DNA from: an uncultured bacterium
GTDB lineage: Bacteria > Babelota > Babeliae > Babelales > JABCYS01
DNA: 64,000 nucleotides
Reading direction: 5' to 3'
Assembly (NCBI GenBank): GCA_963705705.1
Contig: CAVPKK010000001.1
Location: forward strand, 1-64,000
Each line of letters opens with the position of its first letter. Positions within the stretch are counted from its first letter, which is position 1. The translations under genes were made by a program, and so were the position numbers. Below are positions 23,732-45,352 of the stretch, piece after piece. Under the pieces are notes generated by a model. It was not told where the DNA came from. It saw nothing but the letters and a program-made list of their open reading frames with translations, and did not search any database.

Positions 23732-25648
23732 TCAATCGCTGCCCGCCTTTTCTTCTTTCTCACGCTCTATTCTTGCGCGCTTAGATGATTCTTCCGCTTC
23801 AGGAGCAGGGCGTTTTCGCTCGTTCGCTTCACGAGCTTGAGCTTCTTCTTTTTTTCCTGCCTGTTGTAGTTCCGAAATCATCTTCTGAGCCTTGGCTGCT
23901 ATATCACTTTGGGGGGCAACTTTTATTGCTTGTTGAAGTAAAAACATAACCCGTTGAATATCCTGAGGAGCACCTTTTCCTTCATACGTCATGAAAGCAA
24001 GAATAAAATATGCCTGAGCGGCTATGTATGGATTTAGACCTTCGGCAGCTTTGTGAAGATAAACTCGAGCCTGCTTCCAGTCCCGCGGAACTCCGTGACC
24101 TTTTGCATACATTTCAGCAAGCGAAATTTCTGCAGTTTGAATAGCTTTTTTCCCCACATGTGAATATATATCATTTTCAAGTATGTGATGACCTAATTTA
24201 TCGATAGCCAAAGCAAAATATCTAAATGCAGCGTCGTAATTTGGATTCGCACTGTAAAGATCTAGTAGCCCCAAGCAAACTATTGCATGCATGCGCAAAT
24301 TTTTATTTAAGTGCGGCATTGCAATAACTTGGTTGTAATAGTGCTTAGCACGATCATGATTTTTAGGTACGCCAATACCATTTAAATAGGTAGCGCCAAG
24401 GTTTAATTGTGCAACTCCTCGCATTTCTTCATCATGCGGATTTTCCTGCTCGCTCTCAGCTCCCTCAAAATACAGACGGGCCTGATGGCCATTTAACGGC
24501 ACAACGTTTAACTTTTCTATCGGGCCAATATTAGAGTTCAAATACAGTTGACCCAAAATAACTCGCGCTTCTGCGCGCACATTTAAATCATCGATCTGAT
24601 TAGCAGCAGCTTGTAATAGTTTCAGGGCTTCTTGGTACTGATCTTGTTTCTTATCCCACAGTGTTATTTCCGCCCTGCGCAATTGAGATAACGCTTGCGC
24701 TCTCGGATTTGGATGAAGTGCTAATGTCTTATCAAGATACTTATATGCTTTCAGCATCTCTTGATGCTTTGCTTTGGGAGGATAATTTTCAAGCTTCAGA
24801 TAAATTTCTGCCATTAGCACTCCAGCTTCGGGCAAATAACGGCGCGCATCAGAAAGTTCCCTGAGCACCTCTTTTTTTTCATTTTCTATCACTTCATTGC
24901 GCCTTTTAGAACCTAATCTTGCTAACTCGTTGTAATCTGCCCCTCCTTGACCACGCGCCAATACTATTTTAGCTCTTTGAATGATTGCTTGATTCTTATT
25001 ATTTAAATTAACATTTTGCGTCGCTACCCACTCAAAATTTTTCCATGCAGTGCGATAATCTTGCTTAACGCCTAATCCATTCAAATACATCATGCCAAGG
25101 CGTAGTCTGGCTGAGCTCTTTCGTGCTATTTCGGATCTGCTTGTGCCAGAACTTAGTATTATGCTTTCCAAACGGCGCCGTTCTTGTTTCAATGTCTCTG
25201 TCTTTGCTTCCGGTTGCGGTTGTGCAAGCACTGGCGATGGCGGCGGAGGTGGCGGTGACAAAGGCGCGGACAGAGGTAGAGGTGGAGGAGGTGGTGGTAG
25301 CCTTATATGCTTCGGAGCAGGCTGTATAGCCTCTTCTTCTTCGTCAGCTCTCGCAATTTCTTCGAGGCCACACATTTCGAATTCTGCATGCTTTCGCTTT
25401 TCCAATAGGCTCTCAATATTATCTGCTTGTAATGCTTCGCCAGCTTGGCGCAAGCGCTCTATCAAATCATAGGCCTCATTTCGCAATGCATCATCAATTA
25501 TTGAAGCATGACGTATTTTTTCTACCATCCGCCTGTACGAAAAGTTCAAAGGCATTCTAAAACTTTGTGTCGGCGTTGGAGCCGGTACGCTCGTAGCGCA
25601 TAGTTGGCTGACTATGAATAGATTTATACATATGTAGTTGATCTTCAT
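23732..25648 (-). CDS. Secreted Sel1-repeat protein with polyproline tract and C-terminal NLS-like motif
   Basis: Signal peptide; SLR motifs LGMMYLNGLGVKQD, LGATYLNGIGVPKN, LAEMYAKGHGVPRD. Confidence 0.85.
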   Translation of the reverse strand: MKINYICINLFIVSQLCATSVPAPTPTQSFRMPLNFSYRRMVEKIRHASIIDDALRNEAYDLIERLRQAGEALQADNIESLLEKRKHAEFEMCGLEEIARADEEEEAIQPAPKHIRLPPPPPPLPLSAPLSPPPPPPSPVLAQPQPEAKTETLKQERRRLESIILSSGTSRSEIARKSSARLRLGMMYLNGLGVKQDYRTAWKNFEWVATQNVNLNNKNQAIIQRAKIVLARGQGGADYNELARLGSKRRNEVIENEKKEVLRELSDARRYLPEAGVLMAEIYLKLENYPPKAKHQEMLKAYKYLDKTLALHPNPRAQALSQLRRAEITLWDKKQDQYQEALKLLQAAANQIDDLNVRAEARVILGQLYLNSNIGPIEKLNVVPLNGHQARLYFEGAESEQENPHDEEMRGVAQLNLGATYLNGIGVPKNHDRAKHYYNQVIAMPHLNKNLRMHAIVCLGLLDLYSANPNYDAAFRYFALAIDKLGHHILENDIYSHVGKKAIQTAEISLAEMYAKGHGVPRDWKQARVYLHKAAEGLNPYIAAQAYFILAFMTYEGKGAPQDIQRVMFLLQQAIKVAPQSDIAAKAQKMISELQQAGKKEEAQAREANERKRPAPEAEESSKRARIEREKEEKAGSD

Positions 25649-25674: not shown

Positions 25675-26397
25675 TTATTCGTTCTTATACTCATGAAACA
25701 ATATAGTTGATTTAGCTGCCTCTCTATGCTTCTCAAACCATTGCTCAATATCAGGGCTGTTCGCTTTAATCCATGCCAACGCCGCTTCTTTATCACTATA
25801 AAAAGGAAGTGCCGCTCGCAATTCCTCAGAAGAAGAACTGTAATTATAGAAAGCCTTAATATCCTCAGCCGGATAACCGAGCAAACTGCCAATAAGATAA
25901 TGATTGAGATATGCGCTTTCTAATAATGAATATTTATAAAGAAGCAATGCGTCAGTCTTTCCATCCGGTGTAAAAAATATAAATTTACTCAGACGATTTT
26001 TAGGATCAGATATATATTGAAGTTGCAGTTCTGCAAACAATTGTTTCATGCCTTTGATATTAAGTAGCCTGTCTGCAATGTTTTTTTCGGCTATACATAC
26101 ATTTTTATACCCTGCCACAATGCAGCTCATTACAGCTTCTGCATTCCGAGTAGGATGTGAAAGATTTGAGTCGGCTATGCCGGCAACACCCGCTCTGATC
26201 GATGGGCGGCATCGCTCTGCAGTTGGCCGTTCGGTATCGACCAAAAAACGAAACGCATGCTGTGCATCAGGTGAAAGCTTCTGAGCTATTGTCGTATAAT
26301 GAGCCTGCTGCTCAACGGAAGCAGGTATAGGTTCAGCACTTGTGCCGTAGCATTGGCTCGCTATAAATAGATTGAGTACTATAAACTTTGACTGCAT
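25675..26397 (-). CDS. Secreted hypothetical protein, ~250-aa family copy 1
   Basis: Signal peptide; shares AGYKxV, FxPxG, NxYL..LLG, DKxxALxWI with 36827 and 41923. Confidence 0.8.
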   Translation of the reverse strand: MQSKFIVLNLFIASQCYGTSAEPIPASVEQQAHYTTIAQKLSPDAQHAFRFLVDTERPTAERCRPSIRAGVAGIADSNLSHPTRNAEAVMSCIVAGYKNVCIAEKNIADRLLNIKGMKQLFAELQLQYISDPKNRLSKFIFFTPDGKTDALLLYKYSLLESAYLNHYLIGSLLGYPAEDIKAFYNYSSSSEELRAALPFYSDKEAALAWIKANSPDIEQWFEKHREAAKSTILFHEYKNE

Positions 26398-26406
26398 TAC
26401 AATCCT

Positions 26407-28245
26407 TTATTCCGGTTCTTCTTTTTTTATCCGCTTGGCTGGTTCTTCTTCTTCTGCAGCCGGTCGTTTTACTGAAATTCGTTGTTGTTCTTCTTCTTTT
26501 TCAGCATTGGCTTTCTTTTCTTTTATTTCTTTTAAAAATCTCTCTGCATCAATACGAATATTCTGATCTGCCTGTGGGTCTGCAACAACCTGTTCAAAAT
26601 AATGTTTTGCCTTAGCAAAATCTTGCACAATGCCGTGGCCATCCAAATAATAAATTTCACCAAGTCGAACTTGAGCTTTGGCCCCTTCTGATGCAGCATG
26701 CGGATAATTGAGTGCCTGCTCAAAATACCAAATAGCTCGTCTATAATTTTGTAGTTCATAATAAATTTCGCCCAGACCGCGGTACGCTTCAGCCCGCCAT
26801 TCAGGCTCACCAGAAAAGAAATTTCCCAATACAATTGTGAAATAATGCTCCGCTTCCGCTAAACTTTCTGCATCTCTCAGGCGTAGGAAATATTGACCGA
26901 GTTTTAACGCAGCATGAGATTGTGAAACATAATTTAATTCTTGCGCGGCCGCCTGCTTCCAATACCTAATGGCCTTAGGCACATCTTGTTGCACGCCACG
27001 GCCATCCATATACATTTCACCCAGCAAAAAACAGGCTCTGCCCCGAATAGTTTCGGAAAGTTGCGCTACATCTACAGCTTGCCAATACTGAGCCGCTCGT
27101 ACATAGTCTTGCTGTTTATAGTATGTTTCTCCGAGAATGTATTGTGCCTCGTGCCAAGTTGCCGGGTTGTCTTCTGGTCTTATGCGCTCAAGTATCTGGC
27201 GTGCAACGGTAAAATTTTTCGGTACGCAATCACCTTCGTAATAGATTCTACCCAATTCAAGCAACTTGGCAGCCCTTGTGTGAGGGCTTATCGTTCTGCG
27301 ATTAATTGATGTAAGCAAACCTTTAATTGTTGGAGTACGCCCAATATAACGAGAAATAGTTAACCATGGCGCGGCTCGTGGTTGAGCTGGAGCAGGCTGG
27401 GCTTGAGGTTGCAGTTGTGGTAATAAAACTTCTTGCACTTGAGGCTGTGGTGCAGGCACCCATTCGCCTAAGCTGCGTTCATGTGCCTCTTTTTTGCGGG
27501 CTTCATTTATATTTTGATGCTCATCGATTACCAAACGGGTCTCAGGATTCATTCTAAAATCTGATTCGGAAAAAGCGTATTGGAAGCCTTGTGCCGCTTG
27601 GCTCGGATCATATATAAAATATTGGATCTCACCACTTATTGGCAGCATATTAATTGGATTGGTTGGATGAACCACTGCAAGGGTTCCCGTCAATGGATAG
27701 TTTTTGCCAAAACGCCATTCATTAAAGAAATAAGCATCGTAATAATGAACAAACAGTTTGCCAGCTGCATCATAGGTTACAACGCGAGCAATGATCATGG
27801 GGTCGCCATGTTCTTTTTGCCGTTGCAATATATCACCATAAGTTTCATGACTCAGTGGCTCAGAATCTGCAAGGTTAATTTCCTCGGGGCGACCGCGTGT
27901 GAGAGTACTTACTCGAATCGGAATAGTAATCGGCTGGACCGCCGGTGCTACCGGAACTTCTGTTTGCACCATTGCAGCTTCCTTTTTTTTATCTTCAGCG
28001 TCTCTCTCTTCTAATAGTTCCCGTAGACTATCACCTTGGGGTGCTCCGACACTATGCAAGCGGCGTATCAAATCTTCTGCATCTTTGCGCAAAGCAGCAT
28101 CAATAGCCGATGCCAGATCTATTCGCTCAATCATCTGATCATATAGTCGTAACAAATGTGGTGCGGGCGACCGAACTGGAGGAGCGGATGTAGCGGTGCT
28201 TGAGAGCGGCATACAAAGGATGAGCATTAACTTAAGTAGCTTCAT
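26407..28245 (-). CDS. Secreted Sel1/TPR protein with conserved U-box-like domain and NLS-like tail
   Basis: Start MKLLKLML; SLR motifs LGEMYMDGRGVQQD, LGEIYYLDGHGIVQD; tail KRPAAEEEEPAKRIKKEEPE. Confidence 0.85.
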   Translation of the reverse strand: MKLLKLMLILCMPLSSTATSAPPVRSPAPHLLRLYDQMIERIDLASAIDAALRKDAEDLIRRLHSVGAPQGDSLRELLEERDAEDKKKEAAMVQTEVPVAPAVQPITIPIRVSTLTRGRPEEINLADSEPLSHETYGDILQRQKEHGDPMIIARVVTYDAAGKLFVHYYDAYFFNEWRFGKNYPLTGTLAVVHPTNPINMLPISGEIQYFIYDPSQAAQGFQYAFSESDFRMNPETRLVIDEHQNINEARKKEAHERSLGEWVPAPQPQVQEVLLPQLQPQAQPAPAQPRAAPWLTISRYIGRTPTIKGLLTSINRRTISPHTRAAKLLELGRIYYEGDCVPKNFTVARQILERIRPEDNPATWHEAQYILGETYYKQQDYVRAAQYWQAVDVAQLSETIRGRACFLLGEMYMDGRGVQQDVPKAIRYWKQAAAQELNYVSQSHAALKLGQYFLRLRDAESLAEAEHYFTIVLGNFFSGEPEWRAEAYRGLGEIYYELQNYRRAIWYFEQALNYPHAASEGAKAQVRLGEIYYLDGHGIVQDFAKAKHYFEQVVADPQADQNIRIDAERFLKEIKEKKANAEKEEEQQRISVKRPAAEEEEPAKRIKKEEPE

Positions 28246-28326: not shown

Positions 28327-29427
28327 CTATTCCGATTCTTCTTTTCTTGGTTTCTTGAATGACATTTCTTGTATGGGTGGCCGCATCATTGCGGCACGTC
28401 GCCGCTTAATTTCTTCTTTCTCCAACGCTTCCAGTTCCCTGCGCTCTTCTAGTTGTATCAGATATTTCCAGGCAGATTTTCTGAGGGAGGGTACAGCTTC
28501 TTGTATGGCGACACGACCCAAATATAACTCCGCTCGCGCATTATCTTTCGGAAAACCTAACCCATAGAAAAAAATTAAACCAAGGTGAAACTGAGAGTCG
28601 GCCCGGACCACATAATCTAATTTTTGTTGCGAAGCCAGCTGAAAATATTTCCGTGCATTCACAAAATCCGGTTCATCCAAACCTAGGCCAGAGAAATAGA
28701 GTCGCCCAAGCATTCCTTCGGATCGTATTCGTGCTTCAAGACTGAACTTCTGATTGGCCGCCAACATAAGATATTCACGAGCTGTTGCAAAATTTGGTTC
28801 AACCCCGGCACGACCATGATAGTAGATTTCGCCAATTCGCCACTGACTAAACGCGCGTGCATTAGGATTAACATCTTGAGCCGCAGCATCTTCAAAATAA
28901 CGTAGTGCAATAGCTTCATCCTCATCTACACCAAGCCCCATATAATAGAATTCTCCTAGCCATTCTTGAGCCGCTGCTTTGGCATATGGATTTGCATTCT
29001 GCTCTGCCGCCTGCATAAAATATTTCCATGCACGGGTATAATTTTGCGGTTTTTCCCAGTAATAAAGTTCGGCTAATTGAACTAGCTTAGCTGCCCTTGT
29101 CACTGGATCTGTATCGCGATGTATTGCATCAAGCAGATCATTAATGGCGCCGTTTTTTGCTTTTTTTTCTAGTTTTTCAAATTGCTTAATAAGCACCCTT
29201 ATTTCCGGTTCCCAACAATTCCCCCGATCGCGTAATTGGCTTACCAAATCCGTAACTGCATTATTCAGTTCAGGATTGGGCACCGTTGTTGGCTCCCTCA
29301 TTTCCTTGATCAGATAATTATACTGATCTAATAGAAGGATCGGCATGCTCGGTTGGGATGAAGCAGGCGCTGATGTAGCCGCCATAGAAAAAGGTATACA
29401 GATAATGAGAAGAAATTTGCAGTTCAT
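28327..29427 (-). CDS. Secreted Sel1-repeat protein with NLS-like tail
   Basis: LGEFYYMGLGVDED, LGRLYFSGLG, LGLIFFYGLGFPKD; tail KRRR...KKPRKEESE. Confidence 0.85.
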   Translation of the reverse strand: MNCKFLLIICIPFSMAATSAPASSQPSMPILLLDQYNYLIKEMREPTTVPNPELNNAVTDLVSQLRDRGNCWEPEIRVLIKQFEKLEKKAKNGAINDLLDAIHRDTDPVTRAAKLVQLAELYYWEKPQNYTRAWKYFMQAAEQNANPYAKAAAQEWLGEFYYMGLGVDEDEAIALRYFEDAAAQDVNPNARAFSQWRIGEIYYHGRAGVEPNFATAREYLMLAANQKFSLEARIRSEGMLGRLYFSGLGLDEPDFVNARKYFQLASQQKLDYVVRADSQFHLGLIFFYGLGFPKDNARAELYLGRVAIQEAVPSLRKSAWKYLIQLEERRELEALEKEEIKRRRAAMMRPPIQEMSFKKPRKEESE

Positions 29428-29450: not shown

Positions 29451-31106
29451 TTACTTCCCACCAAATCTTTTAATTTCTGCATTAAGCAGATCCCTTATTG
29501 GATCTAGAAAAACTGATAAGGTTGTATCCTGACCGAAATATTTTATTTTCATATTCCGATCAATGCCACGAAGCAGGGCTTCAATATATAATGGTTGTGA
29601 AATGCCATAGCCCCCCATTTTTCCAGATGTCCTAAGTGAATCCAATGCATCTTTTACCAACTTAATCTGCGCGGTCATATTATTCTGTTTAAATACATCC
29701 TCTAATGCTTCGAGATTATCCATGAGCCGCTTTTCGTTTGTAGCGTTCAACGAATTCGTTGCTATCTGCTCCCGTTTTTCCTTCAATTCCTTAGCGAATC
29801 GGGCAGCTTTTTCTTTTTCTTTTTGTTCAGCCAGGGCTTTTGATTCGGCTAGCGCTTCCTTGAGCATTTCATCTTCCTTCTGATCTCTTATAATGGTAAG
29901 TGCAAGGCCCGCTTGAACGCGTTCCCACTCGTTTAATGCACCAGACGTAACAGCACGATCTAGATATTGCTGAGCAACCAGATAATTTTTTGGCAGACCG
30001 TCACCCGCAAAGGACATTTTGCCCAAATAATACTGCGCTTTACCTCGGATGGTTGGATTTTCCGCTTGGTTTGCAGAGCGTTCAAAATATTCTCGAGCTT
30101 GTCTGTGATGCTGCATGTCGTACGAAATAATACCTAATGCGAGTTGATTCTCGGGCGTCGACTCCGCGGGATTCCATGATGACCAATGCGACCCAGGAAC
30201 CATAGGTTGCTGCGGCAATAACACTTCTTGAATATACGGCTTTGGCGCTGGCACCCATTCTCCTGCGGCTCTTTCTTCTGCTTCTTTTTTTCTTGCTGCA
30301 TCCATATTTTGATATTTATCAATTATCAATCGGTTTTCTGGATTATCAATTACATCTGCCTCGGTGAAAGCAAATTGAAATCCTAATTCAGGCTCTTTTG
30401 GATTGTAAATAAAGTATTGGACCTTCCCCTGTATTGGAAGTCTATTGAGTGGATTATTTTGTTCTTTAATTTGAAGTGGGCCTGATAGCGGATAATTATT
30501 ACCAAAACGCAATATGTTATAGGTATATGCATCATAATAATGAACAAATAATGGTGCACCAGGTCTCTCGGAAGTGACAACGCGCGCTAGAATCATTGGA
30601 TCATTGTGTTCTTTTTGTCTTTCCAATATCTCACCATATGTTTCCGTGGTAAGTGGCTCTTCATCGGCAAGCACAATCTCTTCTGGTTTGCCACGCATCA
30701 TGGCGCTCACACGCACTGGAATTGCAGTGATTGTTGGTTTTGGTCCCGAAACCGCTGGTTGTTCTGGAATAGCTGGCTTTGGCTGCGGAGCTTGCTCAGC
30801 TCGTTCCTTTTCTTCTTCCTTGGGCATCTCTTTCTTACTAGGCACTTCTTGCTCAGGTAATGTCCCAAGTAAACGCAGTATGGTTTCTGCTTGGGGTTCA
30901 CCGCCAGCATCTCGCAAACGCACAACTAACTCATCTGCCTGTTTACGCAGGGCAGGATCTATCACCTTCGCGAGTCTTAAGACTCTAACTATCCGCGCAT
31001 ATTGGCTTTCCAAACCCAGGGGCAATTTTGGCATTGGAGCTGGCGCGCTTGTAGCGCATAGTTGGCTTGCGATGAATAGATTTAGAATTATATAGTTGCG
31101 CTTCAT
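29451..31106 (-). CDS. Secreted protein: U-box-like domain, Sel1 repeats, UIM-like helix, C-terminal helical domain
   Basis: Start MKRNYIILNL; paralogous to the neighbouring genes; LGKMSFAGDGLPKN; EDEMLKEALAESK. Confidence 0.85.
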   Translation of the reverse strand: MKRNYIILNLFIASQLCATSAPAPMPKLPLGLESQYARIVRVLRLAKVIDPALRKQADELVVRLRDAGGEPQAETILRLLGTLPEQEVPSKKEMPKEEEKERAEQAPQPKPAIPEQPAVSGPKPTITAIPVRVSAMMRGKPEEIVLADEEPLTTETYGEILERQKEHNDPMILARVVTSERPGAPLFVHYYDAYTYNILRFGNNYPLSGPLQIKEQNNPLNRLPIQGKVQYFIYNPKEPELGFQFAFTEADVIDNPENRLIIDKYQNMDAARKKEAEERAAGEWVPAPKPYIQEVLLPQQPMVPGSHWSSWNPAESTPENQLALGIISYDMQHHRQAREYFERSANQAENPTIRGKAQYYLGKMSFAGDGLPKNYLVAQQYLDRAVTSGALNEWERVQAGLALTIIRDQKEDEMLKEALAESKALAEQKEKEKAARFAKELKEKREQIATNSLNATNEKRLMDNLEALEDVFKQNNMTAQIKLVKDALDSLRTSGKMGGYGISQPLYIEALLRGIDRNMKIKYFGQDTTLSVFLDPIRDLLNAEIKRFGGK

Positions 31107-31125
31107 GCTATTCCTTTTTAGCTCG

Positions 31126-31437
31126 CTATTTGCCACCAAATCTTTTAATTTCTGCATTAATTTTATTTTTGATCGGATCTAGGAAGTTGGAAATGGTTGT
31201 CTGCCCGCCCCAAAATGTGATTTTAATGTCCCCATTAATCTTATTTAATTCCTGCAAAGCCGCCTTTAATGGAACCAGCCCATATGGTGTAAATAAGCCG
31301 ACTCCAACTTTGGATGCATCAAGTGATGCTGCAATATTTTTTACCAACTTGACCGATTCTTGCATGTTATTTTCTTTAAGCGCTGCTTCTAATGTCGCTA
31401 AGCTATCAATAATGTCTTTTCTGTTGGCTAAGCTCAT
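31126..31437 (-). CDS. C-terminal domain ORF, homologous to the 29451 C-terminus; probably the -1 frame continuation of 31434..33104
   Basis: Both end ...FLDPI....NAEIKRFGGK; its ATG overlaps the upstream TGA. Confidence 0.75.
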   Translation of the reverse strand: MSLANRKDIIDSLATLEAALKENNMQESVKLVKNIAASLDASKVGVGLFTPYGLVPLKAALQELNKINGDIKITFWGGQTTISNFLDPIKNKINAEIKRFGGK

Positions 31438-33104
31438 TGCTGCTTCTTTTTTTCTTTCTCTTCTCTCGCACGCTGTGCAGCCTTTTGTTTTTCCTCTTGT
31501 TCGGCATGGGCTCGGGATGCCGCCAATCCAATTTGCAAGGCTGTTTCTTCCTGTTCAGCTAGTAGCTCAGAAACCATCTTTTGTGCTTTTGCTTTGTTGA
31601 TCAAAGATCTAAGATTCCTACTTGCAGCACTTAAATATTCTATAGCACGTGGAATATCCTTCTGCACTCCATTGCCTTGTGCATACATCATGCCCAGATA
31701 AAACTGAGCATTGGCTCGAGCTTGGGGACTTGCTGTCTGGTTTAATGCCTTTTCAAAATGTTTCTTTGCTATCACATAATTTGGTGGCATTCGCGCGCCC
31801 AGCAAATTAATGCCTTCGTACGCAATTTCCCCAAGACGCCATTCAGCTTCTGCCTGAATTTTGGGGTTTACTGTCTGGTTGGCGGCTTCAGTTAAATATT
31901 GCAGAGCAGTTGCAGTATTTTTAACTACTCCATACCCATGAAGAAATAATTCTCCTAGCCAGCCGTTCGCAATAGCTCGCGCGTTCTGATTTACCGTCTG
32001 ATTGGCTGCTCGGCCAAAATAATCTAAAGCTTGCGCATAATCATGGCGCCGCTCAAATATCAGCCCAAGACTTACCTGAACGCCAGCCCGCGTAAGAGGG
32101 TCTGTTTCAAGACTATTTGCAGCTCTTATCATTGCTGCCTCCATACTTTCAACTGGCATTGGCTGAGGGTGCGGTTGCGGCTCAGGTATCATAGGCTGCT
32201 GCGGCAGTAATACCTCTTGAACATAAGGCTTTGGCGCTGGCACAAATTCGCCGGCAGCTCGTTCTTCTGCTTCTTTCTTCCGCGTCGCATCCATGTTTTG
32301 ATAGCGATCAACTATTAATCTTGTTTCTGGATCAGTAATAAAATCAGCTTCTGAGAAGGCATATTGGAATCCAGCTTCGGGATTTTTTGGTTCATAAATA
32401 AAATATTGAACCTTGCCCTCTATTGGCATCCGATTAAGCGGATTATTCGTTTCCTTAATTACCAATGGCCCAGATAAAGGATAATTTGGCCCAAAGCGCA
32501 TGGTATTGTAGGTATAAGCATCGTAATAATGAACAAACAGTGGACCGCCAGCCCGTTCACGGGTAACTACACGGACCAAAATCATTGGATCATTGTGCTC
32601 TTTTTGGCGATCTAATAATTCGCCATAAGATTCTGTAGTAAGAGGTTCATCTTCAGTAAGCACAATCTCTTCAGGCTTGCCTCGTATCAGACCGCTTACG
32701 CGCACTGGAATTGCAGTAATTGCTGGCTTGGGTGCTGCAGCCGCTGGTTGTTCTGGAGCCAGAGGCTGTTGTGGAACCGCTGGTTTTTCTGGGGTAACCG
32801 GCCGTACCACCGTAGCTGCCTGTTCCTTTTCCTCGGGGGCTGGTTTCTTGCCTGCCATTCCCAATATGCCGATATAATGCTCGAGGGTTAATGCTTGCGG
32901 CTCGCCGCCAGCTTCTCGTAAATGAATAATTAGATCTTCAACTTCTTTACGCAAGCGAGGATCGATTTTAGCAAACCGCAACGTTCGCAGCATGGCTGTA
33001 TATTGCTTCTCCAAGTTTTGAGGCAACTTTGGAAATGCAGGTTCGCTTGTTGCGCAGAGTTGGCTTGCGATAAATAGATTCAGAAATAGATATTTGAGCT
33101 TCAT
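31434..33104 (-). CDS. Secreted protein: U-box-like domain, Sel1 repeats, UIM-like helix
   Basis: LGELFLHGYGVVKN, LGMMYAQGNGVQKD; close paralog of 29451. Confidence 0.85.
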   Translation of the reverse strand: MKLKYLFLNLFIASQLCATSEPAFPKLPQNLEKQYTAMLRTLRFAKIDPRLRKEVEDLIIHLREAGGEPQALTLEHYIGILGMAGKKPAPEEKEQAATVVRPVTPEKPAVPQQPLAPEQPAAAAPKPAITAIPVRVSGLIRGKPEEIVLTEDEPLTTESYGELLDRQKEHNDPMILVRVVTRERAGGPLFVHYYDAYTYNTMRFGPNYPLSGPLVIKETNNPLNRMPIEGKVQYFIYEPKNPEAGFQYAFSEADFITDPETRLIVDRYQNMDATRKKEAEERAAGEFVPAPKPYVQEVLLPQQPMIPEPQPHPQPMPVESMEAAMIRAANSLETDPLTRAGVQVSLGLIFERRHDYAQALDYFGRAANQTVNQNARAIANGWLGELFLHGYGVVKNTATALQYLTEAANQTVNPKIQAEAEWRLGEIAYEGINLLGARMPPNYVIAKKHFEKALNQTASPQARANAQFYLGMMYAQGNGVQKDIPRAIEYLSAASRNLRSLINKAKAQKMVSELLAEQEETALQIGLAASRAHAEQEEKQKAAQRAREEKEKKKQQ

Positions 33105-33340: not shown

Positions 33341-34933
33341 CTATTGCAATGAACAACAGGTATTTTGTCCTCTTTGCCTCAAGTATCCATCTTCCTCATC
33401 TGATTCTATTTCTGGTGGTGGTTGAGAAGGCTGCGGCAACAACACTCCTCGACGAGATCTTTGTTCTTTTTCCTTCTGTTCGGCTAAAGTTTTCGATTCA
33501 GCTATGGCTCTTTTGAGTGTTGTTTCGTCTTGCTGTTCATGCATTTGACGATTTATCGAAGCGAGTACTTTTGTAGCCTCACGTTGAGCATATCCCCTTC
33601 TAACCCATCCACTCTTGAGGGCAGCATCTAAATATTCATGGGCTAAGCCCTTATCACGTAGCACAGCGTAGCCATTATAGTACATAAATCCAAGATAGAT
33701 TTGGGCATTTGCCCGCGCCTGAGGGCTCGCTAGTTGATGTAATGCTTTTTCAAAATAGCGTCTTGCCACTACATAATCGGGTGCCACTCTGATAGACGGT
33801 TCTTGGTGCGTATCTATATAGCCGTTATAATTAATTTCGCCAAGCCGCCATTCAGATTCGGCTTTCGCTTTAGGATCGACAATCTGATTTGCTGCATTTT
33901 TAAAATAACCTATCGCTTTTCTCATATGTTGAGGCACACCTTGTCCAAATAAGTAAATTTCCCCCAGCCATCCTTGGGCAATAGCTCGAGCATCAGGATT
34001 TACAGTTTGATTTTCGGCCAGCTCATAATATTCTCGCGCTCGTGCATAGTCTTCGTGGCGATAATAAATGCCAGCAAGCTGTGTTTGTAAATTTGCTCGA
34101 ACAAATGGATCTTCTGTTGCGTCTATCAACCCATGCAAGGCGGCGATTTCAAAATCCTCATTGGGAAGCGTTTGCGGTCGAGGTTGCACTGCGCGTTGTG
34201 GCTGAGGTTCCCCGTGGAATCTGGGGCCTGGTTCTTGCCGATACGGTATTGATTCAGGCACCCGTTCTCCAGAGACATGCTCATAAGCCTCTTTCTTTCG
34301 ACTCGCGTCAATATTTTGGTTCTCATCAACAACTAATCTGATTTGAGGATTCTTTATAAAATCAGATTCCGAGAAGGCATATTGAAATCCATTCACTGGT
34401 TCTTTAGGATTATAAATAAAGTATTGGACTTCGATTATTGGTTCATTATTTAGTGGATCATCAATATGAACTATATTTAAAGATCCCGATAAGGAATAAT
34501 TTCGACCAAAGCGCCATACATTGAATGAATAGGCGTCGAAATAATGGACGAATGATTTATTATCAGCGGGATTATACGTGACTACGCGAGCCAGAATCAT
34601 CTGCTTATTATGTTCCTTTTGCCTTTCCAATAATTCACCGTAGGTTTCTGCGGTTAGCGGCTCGGTATCCTCAAGATTGATGCTTTCAGGTTTTCCTCGA
34701 ATTAAAGGACTTACCTGCACCGGGATAATTTGTGCCTTAACCTCGGGAGCTGCTGAGATTGTTGGCTGTTCTGGCATTGCGGGCATAAGCTGCGAAGCTT
34801 GCGCGGCTCGTTTTTTTTCTTCTTCCTTAGTCATTTCTTTCTTAATTAGCAATTTTGGCATTGGAGGTGGCGCACTTGTAGCGCAAAGTTGGCTTGCTAT
34901 GACTAGATTTAGAAATACACAGATGAGCTTCAT
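33341..34933 (-). CDS. Secreted protein: U-box-like domain, Sel1 repeats, UIM-like helix, C-terminal CaaX (CCSLQ)
   Basis: LGEIYLFGQGVPQH, LGFMYYNGYAVLRD; DETTLKRAIAESK; ends NTCCSLQ. Confidence 0.85.
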   Translation of the reverse strand: MKLICVFLNLVIASQLCATSAPPPMPKLLIKKEMTKEEEKKRAAQASQLMPAMPEQPTISAAPEVKAQIIPVQVSPLIRGKPESINLEDTEPLTAETYGELLERQKEHNKQMILARVVTYNPADNKSFVHYFDAYSFNVWRFGRNYSLSGSLNIVHIDDPLNNEPIIEVQYFIYNPKEPVNGFQYAFSESDFIKNPQIRLVVDENQNIDASRKKEAYEHVSGERVPESIPYRQEPGPRFHGEPQPQRAVQPRPQTLPNEDFEIAALHGLIDATEDPFVRANLQTQLAGIYYRHEDYARAREYYELAENQTVNPDARAIAQGWLGEIYLFGQGVPQHMRKAIGYFKNAANQIVDPKAKAESEWRLGEINYNGYIDTHQEPSIRVAPDYVVARRYFEKALHQLASPQARANAQIYLGFMYYNGYAVLRDKGLAHEYLDAALKSGWVRRGYAQREATKVLASINRQMHEQQDETTLKRAIAESKTLAEQKEKEQRSRRGVLLPQPSQPPPEIESDEEDGYLRQRGQNTCCSLQ

Positions 34934-35060: not shown

Positions 35061-36758
35061 TTATTGAGGTAAGCTCTTTTCCTTAGCCGCTTTTTCTTCC
35101 ATGCGCTTAATCTCAAAGTTTAAGCGGCGGATATCGCGAACAGCTTTTTTGGCAGCCTCACCTGTTCCTTGTGCGGCAATCTTTGCTTGTTCAAGTTCCG
35201 CCCGCAATTGGCCAAGTTCATCCTTAGGTAGCGGGACTAATTCTGCAGGTTTCTCAACTTTTTTCGGTTGCTCTATCTCAGCAACTACCGGTTGTTCCAC
35301 GATTCTAGCCGGTTGTCCTTCAGGAGCTTCATTTTCTGAAGGAGGAGCAGACGGGATTGGTAATTGGCTAGGTATAATGACTTTACCCCTTTTTTCTTTT
35401 TCCTCTTCTGGCATTTTCATTTTTGGCACTGATGATGCCTCTTCCTCTTCTTTTTCTGCCGCTTCTTTCTTTTCTACTTCTTCCGCTTCATAGATCAAAA
35501 TGTATGGAAGGGCATTTTCCCGCACAAATCCTTTTTTCTCAAGATCTTTCATTTCGCCAATAGTTTTATGATCTATTTCTTTATCATCATTGGTATAAAA
35601 CCAGCCGGCTGTCGGAGTGCGCACGTACGCAACATAATGCCCGCCTTCGCCGGTGCCAAGATGGCAAATAGCAGCATTAAGCCGATACATGCCACTGCTT
35701 TTGATTTCAGGATCTTGATATTTCTTAATAGACCATCGCAAGGGAATAGAAATTTTGCTATCAATGCGCGCTGAACGATAAACCACCCTTTCCTCTTTCT
35801 CAACTTTTTCTGTTTTGGCAGCGATTTTACTGGCAGGAGCTTTCTTTATTGCTTCCTTTTCTTTTCCCTTTTCTTCAGCTTCTTTCTTAGGAACCTCTAC
35901 CTCAATAACAGTCGGAACACTTTCTGTTCTTTTTATAAGGACTACCAGTTGCTGTGGCGGATGAACAATGATCGTATGTTCATCGAAATAACGATCAGTC
36001 AGCGTAGTCAATGTAAACATGGAACCGGTTTGCCGCAGATCAGGCGGTATGGCCAATAAAAGTTCGTATTGATCTTCGGCCCGGCGAACTCCTTCAGACT
36101 GCGTTTTAAAATTAAATAATGTGTCTGGCAAAAAATCTTTTGCAGTCCCGCCAGTTGATTCAAAATTTTCAAGCCCGTTACGAAAAGCATTAAGCAAGGA
36201 ACGAATAAATTCATCAGGATCGCCTTGCCTATATACCGGCCTACCTTCTTTAGTTATTGATATTGGCGGATTGATGGTATCGTATGCAGCCAATAACATA
36301 TCGTCACTTATAGCATTTCCACGCATTTGTTTAAATACTTCGATAAAGTTAAGTGCCGTTTGATTCCCTTCATAGATTGCTTCATGAGCAAATAAAAAAT
36401 TAATCAATGGCTGTATATCATATAAGGCTTGAAGAGCGCCGTTCATAAAACATACGTTGTTAGGATTTGGTAAAGAAACCGGCTCTCCCTCAACGCGCAA
36501 TCCGAATTGCTTTTTTATCAATATCCGCAGCTTATTTTGATCGTACATACCGCTATATACATCCCAGGCTTGTTGAAGCAAAGGCTCATAAAAAGCCTTC
36601 AAAACATCTTCAGATAGATTAGGCAACATAGAGCGAACAATTACTCTTGCTTCAGCTTTTTGCTGTTGGGTGGGTTGTGCCGGTTTGGGAGCTGCACGTT
36701 TTCCATAACATGGTGCCGCTAAGAATAAGATGAGCAGTACATTTGAAATCTTCATCAT
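35061..36758 (-). CDS. Secreted USP-family (peptidase C19) deubiquitinase
   Basis: Cys box LPNPNNVCFMNGALQAL; QGDPDEFIRSLL; His box YRLNAAICHLGTGEGGHYVAYVR...WFYTNDD; PYILIYE; signal peptide. Confidence 0.9.
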   Translation of the reverse strand: MMKISNVLLILFLAAPCYGKRAAPKPAQPTQQQKAEARVIVRSMLPNLSEDVLKAFYEPLLQQAWDVYSGMYDQNKLRILIKKQFGLRVEGEPVSLPNPNNVCFMNGALQALYDIQPLINFLFAHEAIYEGNQTALNFIEVFKQMRGNAISDDMLLAAYDTINPPISITKEGRPVYRQGDPDEFIRSLLNAFRNGLENFESTGGTAKDFLPDTLFNFKTQSEGVRRAEDQYELLLAIPPDLRQTGSMFTLTTLTDRYFDEHTIIVHPPQQLVVLIKRTESVPTVIEVEVPKKEAEEKGKEKEAIKKAPASKIAAKTEKVEKEERVVYRSARIDSKISIPLRWSIKKYQDPEIKSSGMYRLNAAICHLGTGEGGHYVAYVRTPTAGWFYTNDDKEIDHKTIGEMKDLEKKGFVRENALPYILIYEAEEVEKKEAAEKEEEEASSVPKMKMPEEEKEKRGKVIIPSQLPIPSAPPSENEAPEGQPARIVEQPVVAEIEQPKKVEKPAELVPLPKDELGQLRAELEQAKIAAQGTGEAAKKAVRDIRRLNFEIKRMEEKAAKEKSLPQ

Positions 36759-36826
36759 TGTCCTTTTAAAATTTTCCGGGTCTTCTTTCCAACTATACAA
36801 AATTATAGATGCGATCAGCAAGATTC

Positions 36827-37597
36827 TTAGACTAAAAGGGTAGAATCATCCTCTAATTCATAATCTTCGAATTTTATTAGGCTAACTTCCTTTTGATGCT
36901 TAGCAAACCAATCTTCTATGCCTTGTGTATGTTCTTCGATCCAAGCAAGAGCCTCCTTCTTGTCTTGTTCAAATGCAATCTCCCAAGACGATTGCGTTCC
37001 GCATTTAAAACAACAGTTGTCACAAGCATGTTCTGATTTATATGACATTTGAACTAAAGCTTCATCATGCCCAAGCAAACGCCTGATTAAATATTCATTA
37101 GCAACCGATAGTTTTTTTGCTTTAAAAATCAACAACGCCTCAATCCCACCCTGTGGCGTAAAAAAAAGCATATTTGATCTATTGGACTTGTCTTCATGGT
37201 AGCTCATATAGGAAAAGTGTAATTCTGCAAGCAATTTTTCCATATTTTTATCGCCATTTAACATCGTGTTAAATAGTTTGGCATCTTCCTCCTGATCAGG
37301 CATCCATACATTTTTATAACCTGTTATCATATGCGCAAGCACAGACTCAATGCCACCCTTTTTTACTGCTCCTGCATTAAGATTTTCTGCTTCGCATACG
37401 AGTGCTCTGCAAAGTTCCATACTTGGCTCATAGGTATTAATGAGTCGCCAGAAGGGGCGTCTGGCACTTTCAGAAAGTTGCGTTGACATAGCGCGGAAGC
37501 GTGCTTCATCCTTTGGCGTCCTTGGCGAAGGGGAGACCCTCGTTGCTTGCAAAGAAATTATGGGTGAAAAAATGATGAGAAGAAAGAAACGATTCAT
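36827..37597 (-). CDS. Secreted hypothetical protein, ~250-aa family copy 2
   Basis: Paralog of 25675 and 41923. Confidence 0.8.
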   Translation of the reverse strand: MNRFFLLIIFSPIISLQATRVSPSPRTPKDEARFRAMSTQLSESARRPFWRLINTYEPSMELCRALVCEAENLNAGAVKKGGIESVLAHMITGYKNVWMPDQEEDAKLFNTMLNGDKNMEKLLAELHFSYMSYHEDKSNRSNMLFFTPQGGIEALLIFKAKKLSVANEYLIRRLLGHDEALVQMSYKSEHACDNCCFKCGTQSSWEIAFEQDKKEALAWIEEHTQGIEDWFAKHQKEVSLIKFEDYELEDDSTLLV

Positions 37598-39820: not shown

Positions 39821-41824
39821 TTATTCTGGTTCTTCTTTTTTTATCCGTTTACTTGGTTCTTCTTCTTCACCCCATAGCTGTCGTTTAGCTAAAAGGCGGC
39901 GTTGTTCTTCTTCTTCAGCCTTTACTTTTCTTTCGCGGGTTCTAACAGCGGCAGCTTCCATATCGGCTATATTTTGTTCCGCTTGTTTTCGCAATTGCGG
40001 ATTTGCATTCGGATCCGTAACAATCTGATTATAATAATCCCACGCAAACACAAAATCTTGTAATACACCTGGGCCGCCACGCATATATATATTACCGAGA
40101 AGTAGTTTGACATCTGGGCGATCTGCAATCGGCGCAAGATATCGCCGCGCCAAACCGAAATCCTGAATAACACCGTGGCCCCCGTTGTAAAAGATGTTAC
40201 CAAGTAAATACCGAGCTTGGGCCAGTTTAGCCGAACTAAGTTCGTTAGAATTTACCGCTGCTTCAAGATACATCACAGCATGTCCATAATTCTGTTGCTT
40301 ATCATAAACTAACCCTAGACCATATCGTGCTTCCGCAGGCAGATCATTTGGTATTAATGGATGGCGCAAGACCTTATCAAAATAATTTTGCGCCCGCCTT
40401 AAACTTTCTGGATCCCCAAGATTTAGATAATAATTCCCAAGAGACAGTTCGGCCCGAGCTTGAGAAACCCAATCCACCCCTTGTGCAGATACTGATTCCC
40501 AATAGCCGAGTGCCCGGGGCACATCTCGTTGTACCCCATGTCCATACAAATACATTGTACCCAAGAAGAAACGTGCTTTTTGCAAAGCATTCCAAGAATT
40601 TGCTGGATCAGGATTATCAATAACAGATTGGAAGTATCGCGCTGCTCGTGGATAGTCTTGCTCAACACCAAAGCCGCCCGTATAATAGATTTCACCAAGG
40701 AGCTCCTGCGCCTGCTGCCAGTAACCACCAGAACGTTCTCGCTGTATATGCTCAAAGATTTGGCTTGCCAGGGCATAATTTTTTGGGACGCCTTCACCTG
40801 CATAATAAATTTTCCCCAATGAAAGCGTTTTGGCAGCCCTTTTATCGGGAGCTACGGTACTGCGATTTATTGAAGCAAGCAAAGTACCAATTCTTCGATT
40901 ACGGGGAACACCACGAGGAAGAGTTAACTGCGGTATGGCAGCTTGCGGTTGGGCTGGAGCAGGCCGTGCCCGGGCGGGTTGCATTGGTGGCAGCAATACC
41001 TCTTGAACTTGAGATCGCGGTGCGGATACCCATTCACCGAGCCTCCGTTCACGGGCTTCTTTTTTGCGTGCCTCACTCATATTTTGATATTCATCAACTA
41101 CTAATCGAGTCTCAGGGTTGTTTCTAAAATCGGTTTCAGAAAAAGCTAATTGAAATCCACGTGTCGGATGGTTTGGATCATAACTAAAATATAGAATATC
41201 TCCGCTTATGTTGAGATTATTTATCGGGTTTGAAGGATGAACTACGCCAATTTTCCCCTTCAATGGATAATTATTACCAAAGCGCCATACATTAAATGAA
41301 TAAGCATCGTAGTAATGAATTAACATTTTGCCTGCTTTGTCATAGGTCACAACGCGGGCAATGATCATCGGGTCACCATGCTCTTGTTGTCGTTGCAATA
41401 TCTCGTTATAGGTTTCATGCGTCAATGGTTCATTATCGGCAAGATTTAATTCTTCTCCTCGGCCGCGAACCAATGTACTCATTACAATAGGAATGGTTTG
41501 TGGTTGCGCGGGCTGCACTGCTGGTTCACTTTCTGGTTGAAGGGCCACGGCAGCTTCTTGTTTTTTTTCTTCCGCAGCTCGCTCTTCCATTAGAGATCTC
41601 AACGCATCGCCTTGGGGTGCTCCTACCGTGTGCAAGCGACGTATTGCATCCTCTACCAACTGGCGAACATAGGGAGTAATTGTCGGTGACTGATGTATGA
41701 GTTTTACCATTCTGTCATAGAGATTTAACAAATATGGTGCGATGGGTCGTCCGGGCGCTGGCGCTGAAGTAGCTACCAAAGATAGTGGCAAGCATAGGAC
41801 GAAGAGTAAGTTAATTAGCTTCAT
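39821..41824 (-). CDS. Secreted Sel1/TPR protein with U-box-like domain and NLS-like tail (paralog of 26407)
   Basis: LGKIYYAGEGVPKN, LGTMYLYGHGVQRD; tail KRQLWGEEEEPSKRIKKEEPE. Confidence 0.85.
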   Translation of the reverse strand: MKLINLLFVLCLPLSLVATSAPAPGRPIAPYLLNLYDRMVKLIHQSPTITPYVRQLVEDAIRRLHTVGAPQGDALRSLMEERAAEEKKQEAAVALQPESEPAVQPAQPQTIPIVMSTLVRGRGEELNLADNEPLTHETYNEILQRQQEHGDPMIIARVVTYDKAGKMLIHYYDAYSFNVWRFGNNYPLKGKIGVVHPSNPINNLNISGDILYFSYDPNHPTRGFQLAFSETDFRNNPETRLVVDEYQNMSEARKKEARERRLGEWVSAPRSQVQEVLLPPMQPARARPAPAQPQAAIPQLTLPRGVPRNRRIGTLLASINRSTVAPDKRAAKTLSLGKIYYAGEGVPKNYALASQIFEHIQRERSGGYWQQAQELLGEIYYTGGFGVEQDYPRAARYFQSVIDNPDPANSWNALQKARFFLGTMYLYGHGVQRDVPRALGYWESVSAQGVDWVSQARAELSLGNYYLNLGDPESLRRAQNYFDKVLRHPLIPNDLPAEARYGLGLVYDKQQNYGHAVMYLEAAVNSNELSSAKLAQARYLLGNIFYNGGHGVIQDFGLARRYLAPIADRPDVKLLLGNIYMRGGPGVLQDFVFAWDYYNQIVTDPNANPQLRKQAEQNIADMEAAAVRTRERKVKAEEEEQRRLLAKRQLWGEEEEPSKRIKKEEPE

Positions 41825-41922
41825 CGGATCCTTTTGTTGTATACATTGCATTGTATATACAGCTTAAAGGATCGGAGCCGGCCAAAACAATAGTTGTTGA
41901 TGATTCGTAAAGAAAAATATAA

Positions 41923-42693
41923 TTATGGAAATACGTGAAGAGTTACGCGGTCATTTTGTGTTTTGAACCATTCTTTATAATCTTTTGAATGCTCTTCAAT
42001 CCATTTTAATGCTTCAGCCTTATCGTGCTCAAAAATCTTTTTCCACGAATTGATTTCACCAAAACAAGAGCACCCGTCATCACTCTTCTGACCAAGTTCA
42101 TAGGCTTCGATAATATCTTGTTCGTCATGCCCAAGGAGATGGCGTTTTAAATATTGGTTCTGAAGCCTGAGATATGTGGACTTATAAAATAATATTGCAT
42201 TCCTTTCTCCCTCAGGTAAATACAATAGTGAGTTATGCGATAAAGCAAATTCAATTAATGAAAAATTTGCGATTTCCTCTTGCGTCAGTTCTCGTGTAGG
42301 AAATAGCATATGCGTGATATGCAGCTCATTAAACAGTAATCGCATCGCCCTTTCTTTCAGTAAGGCATTCAGTTTGGGGCGGCCCTCATCACCATCTAAT
42401 AGCCAAACCTTCTTATAACCGGCTACCAGGTGGGCAATAATCGGCTCAATTTCTTTTTCGCCCATTGCAGCCGCATTCAGGCCTTCTTCTTCACACGTTA
42501 ATGTGCGGCATTGTTCTGGAGACGGTTGATATTTTTGGATTAATCGTAAAAAACGTTGCCGTGCATCCGCAGTTAACATCTGAGCGATATCAGGTCTCAT
42601 GGCAGAAAGTTTTGGGGTGGTTATCGGAATGACCTGCGTAGCAGACAACGATAAAGAAAATACTGAAACAATTGAGGTTACGATTTTTTTCAT
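41923..42693 (-). CDS. Secreted hypothetical protein, ~250-aa family copy 3
   Basis: Paralog of 36827 (Y.PS.E.CR.L.CE.E.LNA, LLGHDE, FE.DK.EAL.WIEEH). Confidence 0.8.
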   Translation of the reverse strand: MKKIVTSIVSVFSLSLSATQVIPITTPKLSAMRPDIAQMLTADARQRFLRLIQKYQPSPEQCRTLTCEEEGLNAAAMGEKEIEPIIAHLVAGYKKVWLLDGDEGRPKLNALLKERAMRLLFNELHITHMLFPTRELTQEEIANFSLIEFALSHNSLLYLPEGERNAILFYKSTYLRLQNQYLKRHLLGHDEQDIIEAYELGQKSDDGCSCFGEINSWKKIFEHDKAEALKWIEEHSKDYKEWFKTQNDRVTLHVFP

Positions 42694-44230: not shown

Positions 44231-45352
44231 ATGATCAAGAGGAACATATTTCTGCTATTGCTCAGCTTTGTCTGTTCAGCACAGGCCATTTCTTTCCGCG
44301 ATTATTATCATGGCAATGCGGAATTAGGGATCCCATCACATGAAAAAGACATTGTTGAAGCGGTTAGATTAGGCTCATTGAATTTAAACAATAAAGACCT
44401 TACTGATTTGATTGGCTTCAATGAGATTCCTGGCCTTAACTTGCTTCGAACGCTTTTTCTCAACAAAAATCAGTTCTCTATTCTTCCGGAAAATATTTTC
44501 GATGGCCTAACTTCACTTCAGGAGCTCTACCTCTCCAATAACCAGCTCAATATGCTTCCTGAGAATATCTTCCGTCGCCTAACTGCACTTAAAATACTTG
44601 TGCTCTACAAGAATCAGCTCATTATGCTTTCAGAGAATATTTTCCATGGCCTAATTTCACTTCAGGCGCTTAATCTCGAGAATAACCAACTTATTGCGCT
44701 CCCGGGGAATATCTTCAGTGACTTGCCTGCGCTTCGATTGCTTTATCTCGGCGACAATCCAATACCTTTAAGCCAAGCACAATTACGTAAGGAACTAAGA
44801 TTGCCAGCCAATGTTTTGCTGGAATTTAAAACTCAAAAACAAGAGCGAGCAGAACAGGAACTGTTCAGATCCATTGAGAATGCGGATGTCTCAACATTGC
44901 GTAAGCGACTTGAAGCTATCAAACGCCGCAATATTCTCGGGCCTAAGATGCATACAATAGACATATCAAAAATACGAGATTCCCATGGCGATAATCTATT
45001 GCATGCGGCAATAAGAGATGCAGCCAAAAGAATTGGCATTGTAAATGCTATGACTATTGGTTTGCCAGAGAAGGAAAAGGCGGCGGCTAAAGAAGTTCAA
45101 GCTGAACAAAAAGCAAAGATTAATCAGAAGTACATGAAAATAATAAGCGTTATTCTCTCATGTGGCGAAAAATGCGTTCAAGAAATGCTCTTTACGCCCA
45201 ATGCTGAAGGTGAACAAGTTATTGATGCAATAATCGCCAAACTTGGATTAGATAGTCCAATATATACGGCGATAATCGACGCACTAACTCAAGCAAAAGA
45301 AGAGGAAAAGAAAGAAAAAGAACAAGAAACACAGGCCAAACATGAACTATAA
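44231..45352 (+). CDS. Secreted leucine-rich repeat protein with ankyrin-like C-terminal motif
   Basis: 24-aa LRRs LQELYLSNNQLNMLPENIFRRL; GDNLLHAAI. Confidence 0.9.
   Translation: MIKRNIFLLLLSFVCSAQAISFRDYYHGNAELGIPSHEKDIVEAVRLGSLNLNNKDLTDLIGFNEIPGLNLLRTLFLNKNQFSILPENIFDGLTSLQELYLSNNQLNMLPENIFRRLTALKILVLYKNQLIMLSENIFHGLISLQALNLENNQLIALPGNIFSDLPALRLLYLGDNPIPLSQAQLRKELRLPANVLLEFKTQKQERAEQELFRSIENADVSTLRKRLEAIKRRNILGPKMHTIDISKIRDSHGDNLLHAAIRDAAKRIGIVNAMTIGLPEKEKAAAKEVQAEQKAKINQKYMKIISVILSCGEKCVQEMLFTPNAEGEQVIDAIIAKLGLDSPIYTAIIDALTQAKEEEKKEKEQETQAKHEL

Follow-up and report, generated by a model that had tools for sequence, protein, structure and literature searches.

Positions 1 to 64,000 of contig CAVPKK010000001.1 (assembly GCA_963705705.1), hereafter the window, come from an uncultured Dependentiae (Babeliales) bacterium and carry five related minus-strand genes that share a conserved domain of about 175 amino acids (aa). 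What is this domain, and what would the bacterium do with five copies of it? An earlier note on this DNA had read it as a cysteine-free U-box or RING. Our analysis places the domain in the Pfam family DUF5092 and predicts a RING/U-box fold for it. We put the probability at about one half that the five genes encode host-directed U-box-like ubiquitin ligases (E3s) of a protist parasite. The genome assembly (1.38 Mb in 9 contigs, 96% complete) was compared with 261 species genomes of the phylum, all from one order and, where listed, 0.5-1.7 Mb in size. The window itself is bacterial, encoding RpoA, SecY, EF-Tu, EF-G, YidC and MurC.

Five paralogs share a cysteine-free domain

The motif of the domain is borne by five open reading frames (ORFs), listed here with the parts of paralog 1 that were modelled.

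29451 to 31157, minus strand: paralog 1, an ORF of 568 aa; the called gene (P0001) begins 17 codons later, at about 31106
30204 to 30734, minus strand: 177-aa DUF5092-type domain of paralog 1, used for structure prediction
30399 to 30671, minus strand: predicted RING/U-box-like core of paralog 1, 91 aa
26407 to 28320, minus strand: paralog 2; domain at 27409-27936, Sel1/TPR repeats, tail resembling a bipartite nuclear localization signal (NLS), KRPAAEEEEPAKRIKKEEPE
31434 to 33104, minus strand: paralog 3; domain at 32193-32723, Sel1 repeats, C-terminal module detached as the next ORF
33341 to 34933, minus strand: paralog 4; domain at 34214-34738, Sel1 repeats, ends in CSLQ, a CaaX-like box
39821 to 41851, minus strand: paralog 5; domain at 40979-41506, Sel1/TPR repeats, NLS-like tail KRQLWGEEEEPSKRIKKEEPE

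The other paralogs align with the first ORF over their full length at 40-61% identity. Paralog 1 consists of a signal peptide, a helical leader module, a Pro/Glu/Lys-rich linker, the DUF5092 domain and a short Sel1 region, and its last ~100 aa form a C-terminal module with KRFGGK at the end. Its domain encloses the stretch 30243-30723 on which the earlier note had centred, which encodes residues 146-305 of the ORF. Sel1 (PF08238) passes its cut-off of 30.7 bits in four of the five paralogs (45-67 bits) and falls below it in paralog 1 (27.5 bits).

Mean pairwise identity across the five copies of the domain is 63% (55-79%), compared with 45% for the N-terminal part of the proteins and 33% (26-48%) for the C-terminal, Sel1-bearing part, so the domain is much better conserved than the Sel1 arrays, as had been claimed. 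In the domain alignment, A2, the mean column identity is 75%. The motif string previously assigned to all five proteins holds as a consensus: read by eye, none of its elements occurs in fewer than three copies, with EPLT in four (EPLS in the 26407 copy), FVHYYDAY in three, and NP[LI]N in four (DPLN in the 33341 copy). The domain is also free of cysteine, as stated there, with a count of zero in every copy. This similarity is far beyond chance, since the profile of A2, searched against 1.84 billion representative proteins, matches 279 of them at E ≤ 1e-3 and 32 at E ≤ 1e-10. The conserved core spans about 100 aa (profile positions ~15-115), and the window copies carry about 60 further conserved residues C-terminal to it.

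A bacterial subfamily of DUF5092

All five proteins match Pfam DUF5092 (PF17010), a profile of 145 positions, from position 2 to position 91, with E-values between 3.6e-9 and 9e-6. At the curated cut-off of 27 bits, four of the five pass in the protein scan (26.2-37.2 bits), and a six-frame scan of the genome returns exactly five loci, all of them above it (29.1-39 bits). The earlier note had suggested a resemblance to a DUF5092-like family of microsporidia and early fungi, which would point to a domain shared with eukaryotes. The suggestion was correct, and the named members of the family are early-diverging fungi.

A Pfam scan took in 98 of the profile matches (P0004-P0101), drawn from the 150 listed of the 279, and found PF17010 at E ≤ 1e-4 in 88 of the 98. 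Two types of protein emerge. The fungal type covers the whole 145-position model at 100-138 bits and has long inserts and no second domain. The bacterial type covers only the first ~90 positions and combines them with Sel1 (33 of the 98), ankyrin (P0013) or WD40 (P0031) repeats, or with further copies of the domain in tandem, two to four per protein (P0012, P0014-17, P0019, P0020). One candidate relative, P0071, was discarded as a false positive, a TQ/SpaA adhesin. According to a crude hydropathy scan, an N-terminal hydrophobic segment is present in 0 of 72 fungal-type and 39 of 78 bacterial-type proteins, and a C-terminal one in 48 of 72 and 4 of 78, respectively.

With the fungal-type protein P0053 (Racocetra fulgida CAG8560392.1) as the query, 181 matches were obtained. 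Among the best 120, all rows that name an organism are early-diverging fungi, and all are annotated as hypothetical. Glomeromycetes, chytrids, blastoclads, relatives of Mortierella and Neocallimastix, and the rozellid Paramicrosporidium are represented; two of these lineages were looked up, and for the others we take the phylum from general knowledge. The fungal proteins, for example P0053 and Spizellomyces SPPG_01209, have a core homologous to that of the window proteins, with the common motifs ILARVxT, YYxA..N and NPLNNxPIxGxVxYF. Unlike the window proteins, which combine a signal peptide with Sel1 repeats and branch in a clade of their own, they lack repeats and frequently end in a hydrophobic anchor.

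In a quick maximum-likelihood tree of the core, one branch with an SH-aLRT value of 94 parts the fungal from the bacterial type, with 29 fungal-type rows plus P0077 on one side and 50 bacterial rows on the other. As sequence motifs defined the groups and the tree has no root, we read it as one deep split with no direction of transfer. The partial match to the model, the combination of signal peptide and Sel1 repeats, and the separate clade lead us to regard the window proteins as a distinct bacterial subfamily with a shared N-terminal core. DUF5092 in the full sense, covering 145 positions as the sole domain with a C-terminal anchor, does not describe them.

The domain is scattered unevenly over the phylum, in 14 of the 261 genomes and 13 of 145 genera, and genomes with several copies are frequent. 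Match counts reach nine in genome G093 and eight in G192, with five in each of G000 and G091. Tandem arrays are found elsewhere, too: four matches lie within 6 kb at G192:C3:326416-332473 and three within 2.5 kb at G091:C5:53648-56145. A similarity search with the window domain returned only the window's own proteins. The related-loci search with A2 gave 47 pattern matches on genome contigs and 45 on viral contigs, with 0 confirmed in both; the domain profile had 0 matches at E ≤ 10 in a PDB sequence search, and the ESM Atlas look-up gave no usable match for the domain.

Predicted fold of the domain

AlphaFold2, run template-free with an 80-row alignment, models the 177-aa domain with a predicted local distance difference test score (pLDDT) of 94.6 and a predicted template modelling score (pTM) of 0.86, and the 91-aa core with a pLDDT of 95.5 and a pTM of 0.84. 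The pLDDT is at least 90 at 149 of 177 and 87 of 91 residues, respectively. The core model runs from a first loop (EPLT) through an inserted helix, a β-hairpin (MILARVVT and LFVHYYD), a central helix (AYTYNILRF) and a long second loop (NNPLNRLPI) to a strand (VQYFI). In this prediction the elements follow one another as in the RING/U-box plan, and the two long loops, the β-hairpin, the central helix and the cross-brace order of a RING-type fold are all present.

Structural comparison was performed with VIA-align, an all-against-all search that is independent of Foldseek, on 48,161 PDB representatives. For the core, the best 50 rows (Z 6.2 to 4.0) are without exception RING/U-box modules or complexes that we take to contain one. 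Approximately 39 name RING, U-box or E3 in their title; the other 11, comprising APC/C, spliceosome entries, TFIIH/MAT1, Slx1-Slx4, the SEA complex and the cytoplasmic lattice, are matches that we take to be to RING/U-box subunits. The best 50 rows for the whole domain belong to the same superfamily, bar two that are clearly unrelated (NosL and vasohibin). The matches span whole target domains at root-mean-square deviations (rmsd) of 1.7-3.3. The Prp19 U-box aligns with the core model over 55 of 56 residues, and, because this alignment begins at core residue 3, it sets EPLT opposite the U-box C/D-P-I-[ST], a pairing that had been suggested from the sequence and that is read here from the start of the alignment.

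Zinc ligands are absent, both from the five window copies and from the 80 relatives, in which no core column exceeds 5% cysteine and none shows a four-ligand pattern. Among the top-conserved positions in these relatives are the loop residues E26, T29, N94 (84%), P95 (97%) and N97 (82%) and the hydrophobic position 28 (F, L or I in 93%). The best-conserved non-core positions belong to the two loops that the fold match places on the side facing the ubiquitin-conjugating enzyme (E2). Conservation of this kind together with the absence of cysteine is as expected of a zinc-free, U-box-like RING. On the strength of the model, the DUF5092-type domain appears to be a zinc-free branch of the RING/U-box fold that is new as judged by the literature.

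The domain nevertheless differs from the U-box of eukaryotic E3s (Prp19, CHIP, Ufd2/E4B and plant PUB/OsCIE1; PF04564), to which its sequence similarity is undetectable. While these U-boxes measure ~60-70 aa, the window core measures ~91 aa, with the inserted helix past loop 1 and a long loop ahead of loop 2. The window domain adds a conserved β/helical extension of ~60 aa, and the window proteins carry signal peptides.

Export features and gene context

All five proteins start with Sec-type leaders, recognized by eye and partly with a hydropathy scan. The helical module that follows the leader is common to the five paralogs and two Sel1-only relatives, and further genes of interest lie within or near the cluster.

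35061 to 36821, minus strand: USP/UCH-type deubiquitinase (PF00443, E 3.2e-27) with an N-terminal hydrophobic leader, inside the paralog run
23732 to 25648, minus strand: Sel1-only relative that shares the signal peptide and leader module but has no DUF5092 domain; its tail is NLS-like
28327 to 29427, minus strand: Sel1-only relative of 366 aa, between paralogs 1 and 2
25675 to 26397, 36827 to 37597 and 41923 to 42693, minus strand: paralogs of 240-256 aa, 31-40% identical, with hydrophobic leaders and an LLG[HY] motif
31126 to 31437, minus strand: detached module ORF of 103 aa, 42% identical (E 3e-21) to the C-terminal module of paralog 1
44231 to 45352 and 45342 to 46445, plus strand: two adjacent leucine-rich repeat proteins (LRR_8, E 7e-23 and 2e-28) just past the cluster, with eukaryote-like repeats

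In paralog 1 the leader module (~30960-31050, minus strand) lies directly past the signal peptide and has the pattern Y..M...L....IDP.LR..A.DLI.RLR..G. It is also found in distant relatives, with P0004, P0006, P0008 and P0011 as named carriers, and could, judged by its sequence, be a sorting or translocation signal. Paralogs 2 and 5 and both Sel1-only relatives end in acidic and basic tails that resemble bipartite NLSs by eye (for example, KRPAAEEEEPAKRIKKEEPE and KRPAPEAEESSKRARIE), which suggests nuclear targeting in the host. By the same inspection, the C-terminus of paralog 4, TCCSLQ, is CaaX-like; Legionella effectors carry CaaX-type boxes for host prenylation.

The deubiquitinase gene is the only PF00443 gene of the genome. 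It also stands beside domain genes in G084, a genome of the same genus. As a general rule this linkage was rejected because it is seen within the genus only. The 240-256 aa family flanks the gene runs and in G084 likewise adjoins the deubiquitinase and domain genes. Neither Pfam nor the Atlas gave a usable match for it, and a PDB sequence search returned 0 at E ≤ 1. The 256-aa family occurs in 18 of the 261 genomes, and a general linkage to DUF5092 was rejected, as only 5 of the 18 also have that domain.

The ATG of the detached module ORF overlaps the TGA stop of paralog 3, directly past an A7 run. The separation of this ORF from paralog 3 could reflect a frameshift, an assembly error at the homopolymer, or a genuine split in which translation is coupled.

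A report on the cultured Dependentiae parasite Chromulinavorax (Deeg et al. 2019, PMC6561590) gives signal peptides for 44% of its coding sequences and 78% of its ankyrin proteins and takes both groups to be secreted effectors.

A proposed host-directed ligase and its alternatives

The reading that we favour begins with what is observed: the five genes are paralogs, their domain is homologous to DUF5092, lacks cysteine and is predicted to have a RING/U-box fold, and their architectures and gene neighbourhood are as described above. The five products would be exported by Sec, in the order signal peptide, helical leader, low-complexity linker, domain of RING/U-box fold, Sel1 solenoid. The RING-like core would dock a ubiquitin-charged host E2 (E2~Ub) via the E-P-[FLI]-[TS] loop, the N-P-x-N-x-x-P-I loop and the central helix, and the Sel1 array would grip a host target. 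From docking and target holding together, action as a U-box-type E3 ligase would follow. The differing C-terminal tails (NLS-like, CaaX-like and the 100-aa module) might steer the paralogs to separate host compartments, where the co-located exported deubiquitinase may edit or reverse ubiquitin marks. Export into the host, E2 binding, ligase activity and targets are the parts that we infer.

We favour host-directed U-box-like E3 ligases because of the RING-like fold, the repeat architecture, the differing tails, the deubiquitinase in the cluster and the signal-peptide precedent in the phylum. U-box ligases (CHIP, PUBs, Prp19, LubX) are typically built from an E2-docking module with a repeat solenoid attached. 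The architecture and the co-clustered deubiquitinase fit host-directed E3 ligases. Bacterial effectors with U-box- or RING-like ligase modules include Legionella LubX, GobX and RavN, E. coli NleG and Pseudomonas AvrPtoB; such zinc-free RING-like E2-docking modules are arranged in tandem in LubX and are invisible to sequence searches in RavN. The concept of an intracellular bacterium with a zinc-free RING-like module, predicted in our case, is alike. In contrast, the family is separate and belongs to another phylum, the Dependentiae, and the window proteins have a Sec leader where those effectors have a type III/IV signal. A sequence likeness to NleG/DUF1076 (PF06416), which the earlier note had also raised, was dropped, as the Pfam scans gave no such match; none of these effector chains, NleG included, is among the best 50 structural rows for the core or the whole domain. 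The Legionella proteins LpnE and EnhC are secreted Sel1 proteins that resemble the window proteins in signal peptide and Sel1 solenoid, but the RING-like module is found only in the latter.

Several points weigh against ligases of this kind. Pfam finds no U-box or RING in the five proteins at E ≤ 0.1, and neither is among the 25 commonest families of the 80 relatives at E ≤ 10. The U-box hidden Markov model (HMM; PF04564) has 0 matches at E ≤ 0.1 in the genome itself, and hhalign against the genuine Dependentiae U-box pairs just 10 columns (NNPLNRLPIQ with NSPMTGLPLK) at an E-value of 0.11 and a probability of 0.5%. Because the Pfam, HMM and hhalign tests are negative, the domain is no member of the Pfam U-box family; our claim concerns the fold and the likely mode of action. 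Foldseek against the PDB gives no match at E ≤ 0.001 for either model (best E 0.14 and 0.65). The U-box/RING likeness proposed in the earlier note is supported by the predicted fold as compared with VIA-align, but not by sequence and profile methods or by Foldseek. Only 55-65 of the 91 core residues superpose, and in the model the E2 face could be changed or masked by the inserted helix and the long loop. Ligase activity is lacking in many domains of RING fold. With a Sec signal peptide alone a protein reaches only the periplasm, and we know of no delivery route into the host cytosol for this phylum. Inspection by eye is the sole basis for the NLS-like and CaaX-like tails, and the deubiquitinase is absent from three of five other DUF5092-rich genomes checked and lies 21 kb off in G184.

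The U-box HMM matches in 2 of the 261 genomes of the phylum. The sole clear canonical U-box (L013, G048:C80:962-3292; 52 bits) is N-terminal in a large GTPase-like protein with a hydrophobic leader (P0152; Pfam MMR_HSR1, Dynamin_N and RsgA_GTPase), and a protein similarity search with this U-box returned only itself. E2 genes (PF00179) number 0 in the genome and 0 in all 261 genomes of the phylum, which is weak evidence because control genomes gave no match either; the F-box-like search, with 0 in the genome, is weak for the same reason.

A RING/U-box fold without a ligase role is, in our estimate, unlikely but deserves serious attention. The domain would then be a protein-binding module that sequesters host E2, or that mimics or competes with a host protein of the DUF5092 type, in fungi a tail-anchored membrane protein, with Sel1 as a scaffold. 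The fold evidence serves this explanation as well as it does the ligase, non-catalytic RING-fold domains are common, and the inserted helix and long loop depart from canonical U-boxes. The fungal relatives differ in topology, with hydrophobic segments at the C-terminus (48 of 72) and never at the N-terminus (0 of 72), which suggests a conserved eukaryotic role that a parasite could copy. However, conservation is strongest in the loops that form the E2 face of real RING/U-box ligases, the pairing of the domain with varied substrate-binding repeats and its duplication in tandem are common traits of E3 adaptors, and among the best 120 of the 181 matches no named non-fungal host has DUF5092.

We consider it improbable that the five are periplasmic or cell-surface Sel1-type proteins of the envelope or of adhesion, with a domain unrelated to host ubiquitin. 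The Sec-type leaders, as far as eye and hydropathy tell, are present in all five, Sel1 proteins have envelope roles in other bacteria, and a route into the host cytosol was not identified in this analysis. Yet the only other known home of the domain is the cytosolic side of fungal tail-anchored proteins, and its relatives fuse it to ankyrin and WD40 repeats of eukaryotic type. The cluster includes a deubiquitinase, an enzyme without a bacterial substrate, the tails resemble eukaryotic sorting signals by eye, and proteins with signal peptides in the cultured relative are regarded as secreted effectors (PMC6561590).

More doubtful still is the idea that a small α/β arrangement, or the prediction itself, produces the likeness to RING/U-box while the true fold and function are unrelated, as chance would give a mixed list in place of one superfamily in 50 of 50 core and 48 of 50 whole-domain rows, the matches cover whole target domains at rmsd 1.7-3.3, and pLDDT is at least 90 at nearly all core residues (87/91) and most of the domain (149/177).

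Implications for Dependentiae and DUF5092

A full-text literature search found no paper on DUF5092 or PF17010, and literature on Dependentiae and ubiquitin held nothing on a DUF5092-type family. By the measure of that literature, the models point to a new zinc-free RING/U-box-fold family, invisible to sequence searches, that early fungi and a parasite phylum share.

Host-directed U-box-like ligases in the window invite a broader scenario, which we offer tentatively and rate at somewhat less than even. DUF5092 might be an unrecognised zinc-free branch of RING/U-box E3s, anciently a tail-anchored membrane ligase of early-diverging fungi, that was exchanged once with Dependentiae and there radiated into multi-copy secreted effectors. 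The window would then be a 'ubiquitin island' of five ligases with different host addresses (nuclear, prenylated-membrane and other) next to the genome's one USP, and a 1.4-Mb parasite with Sec alone would be able to rewrite host ubiquitination.

If the ligase reading is true, a function and a fold would be assigned to a DUF conserved in Chytridiomycota, Blastocladiomycota, Glomeromycota, Mortierellomycota, Neocallimastigomycota and Rozellomycota, and a new sequence-invisible family would join the short list of bacterial RING/U-box mimics. The two conserved loops are direct targets for mutation. The Dependentiae, a widespread phylum of protist parasites whose biology is little studied, would gain their first effector mechanism that is concrete and open to testing.

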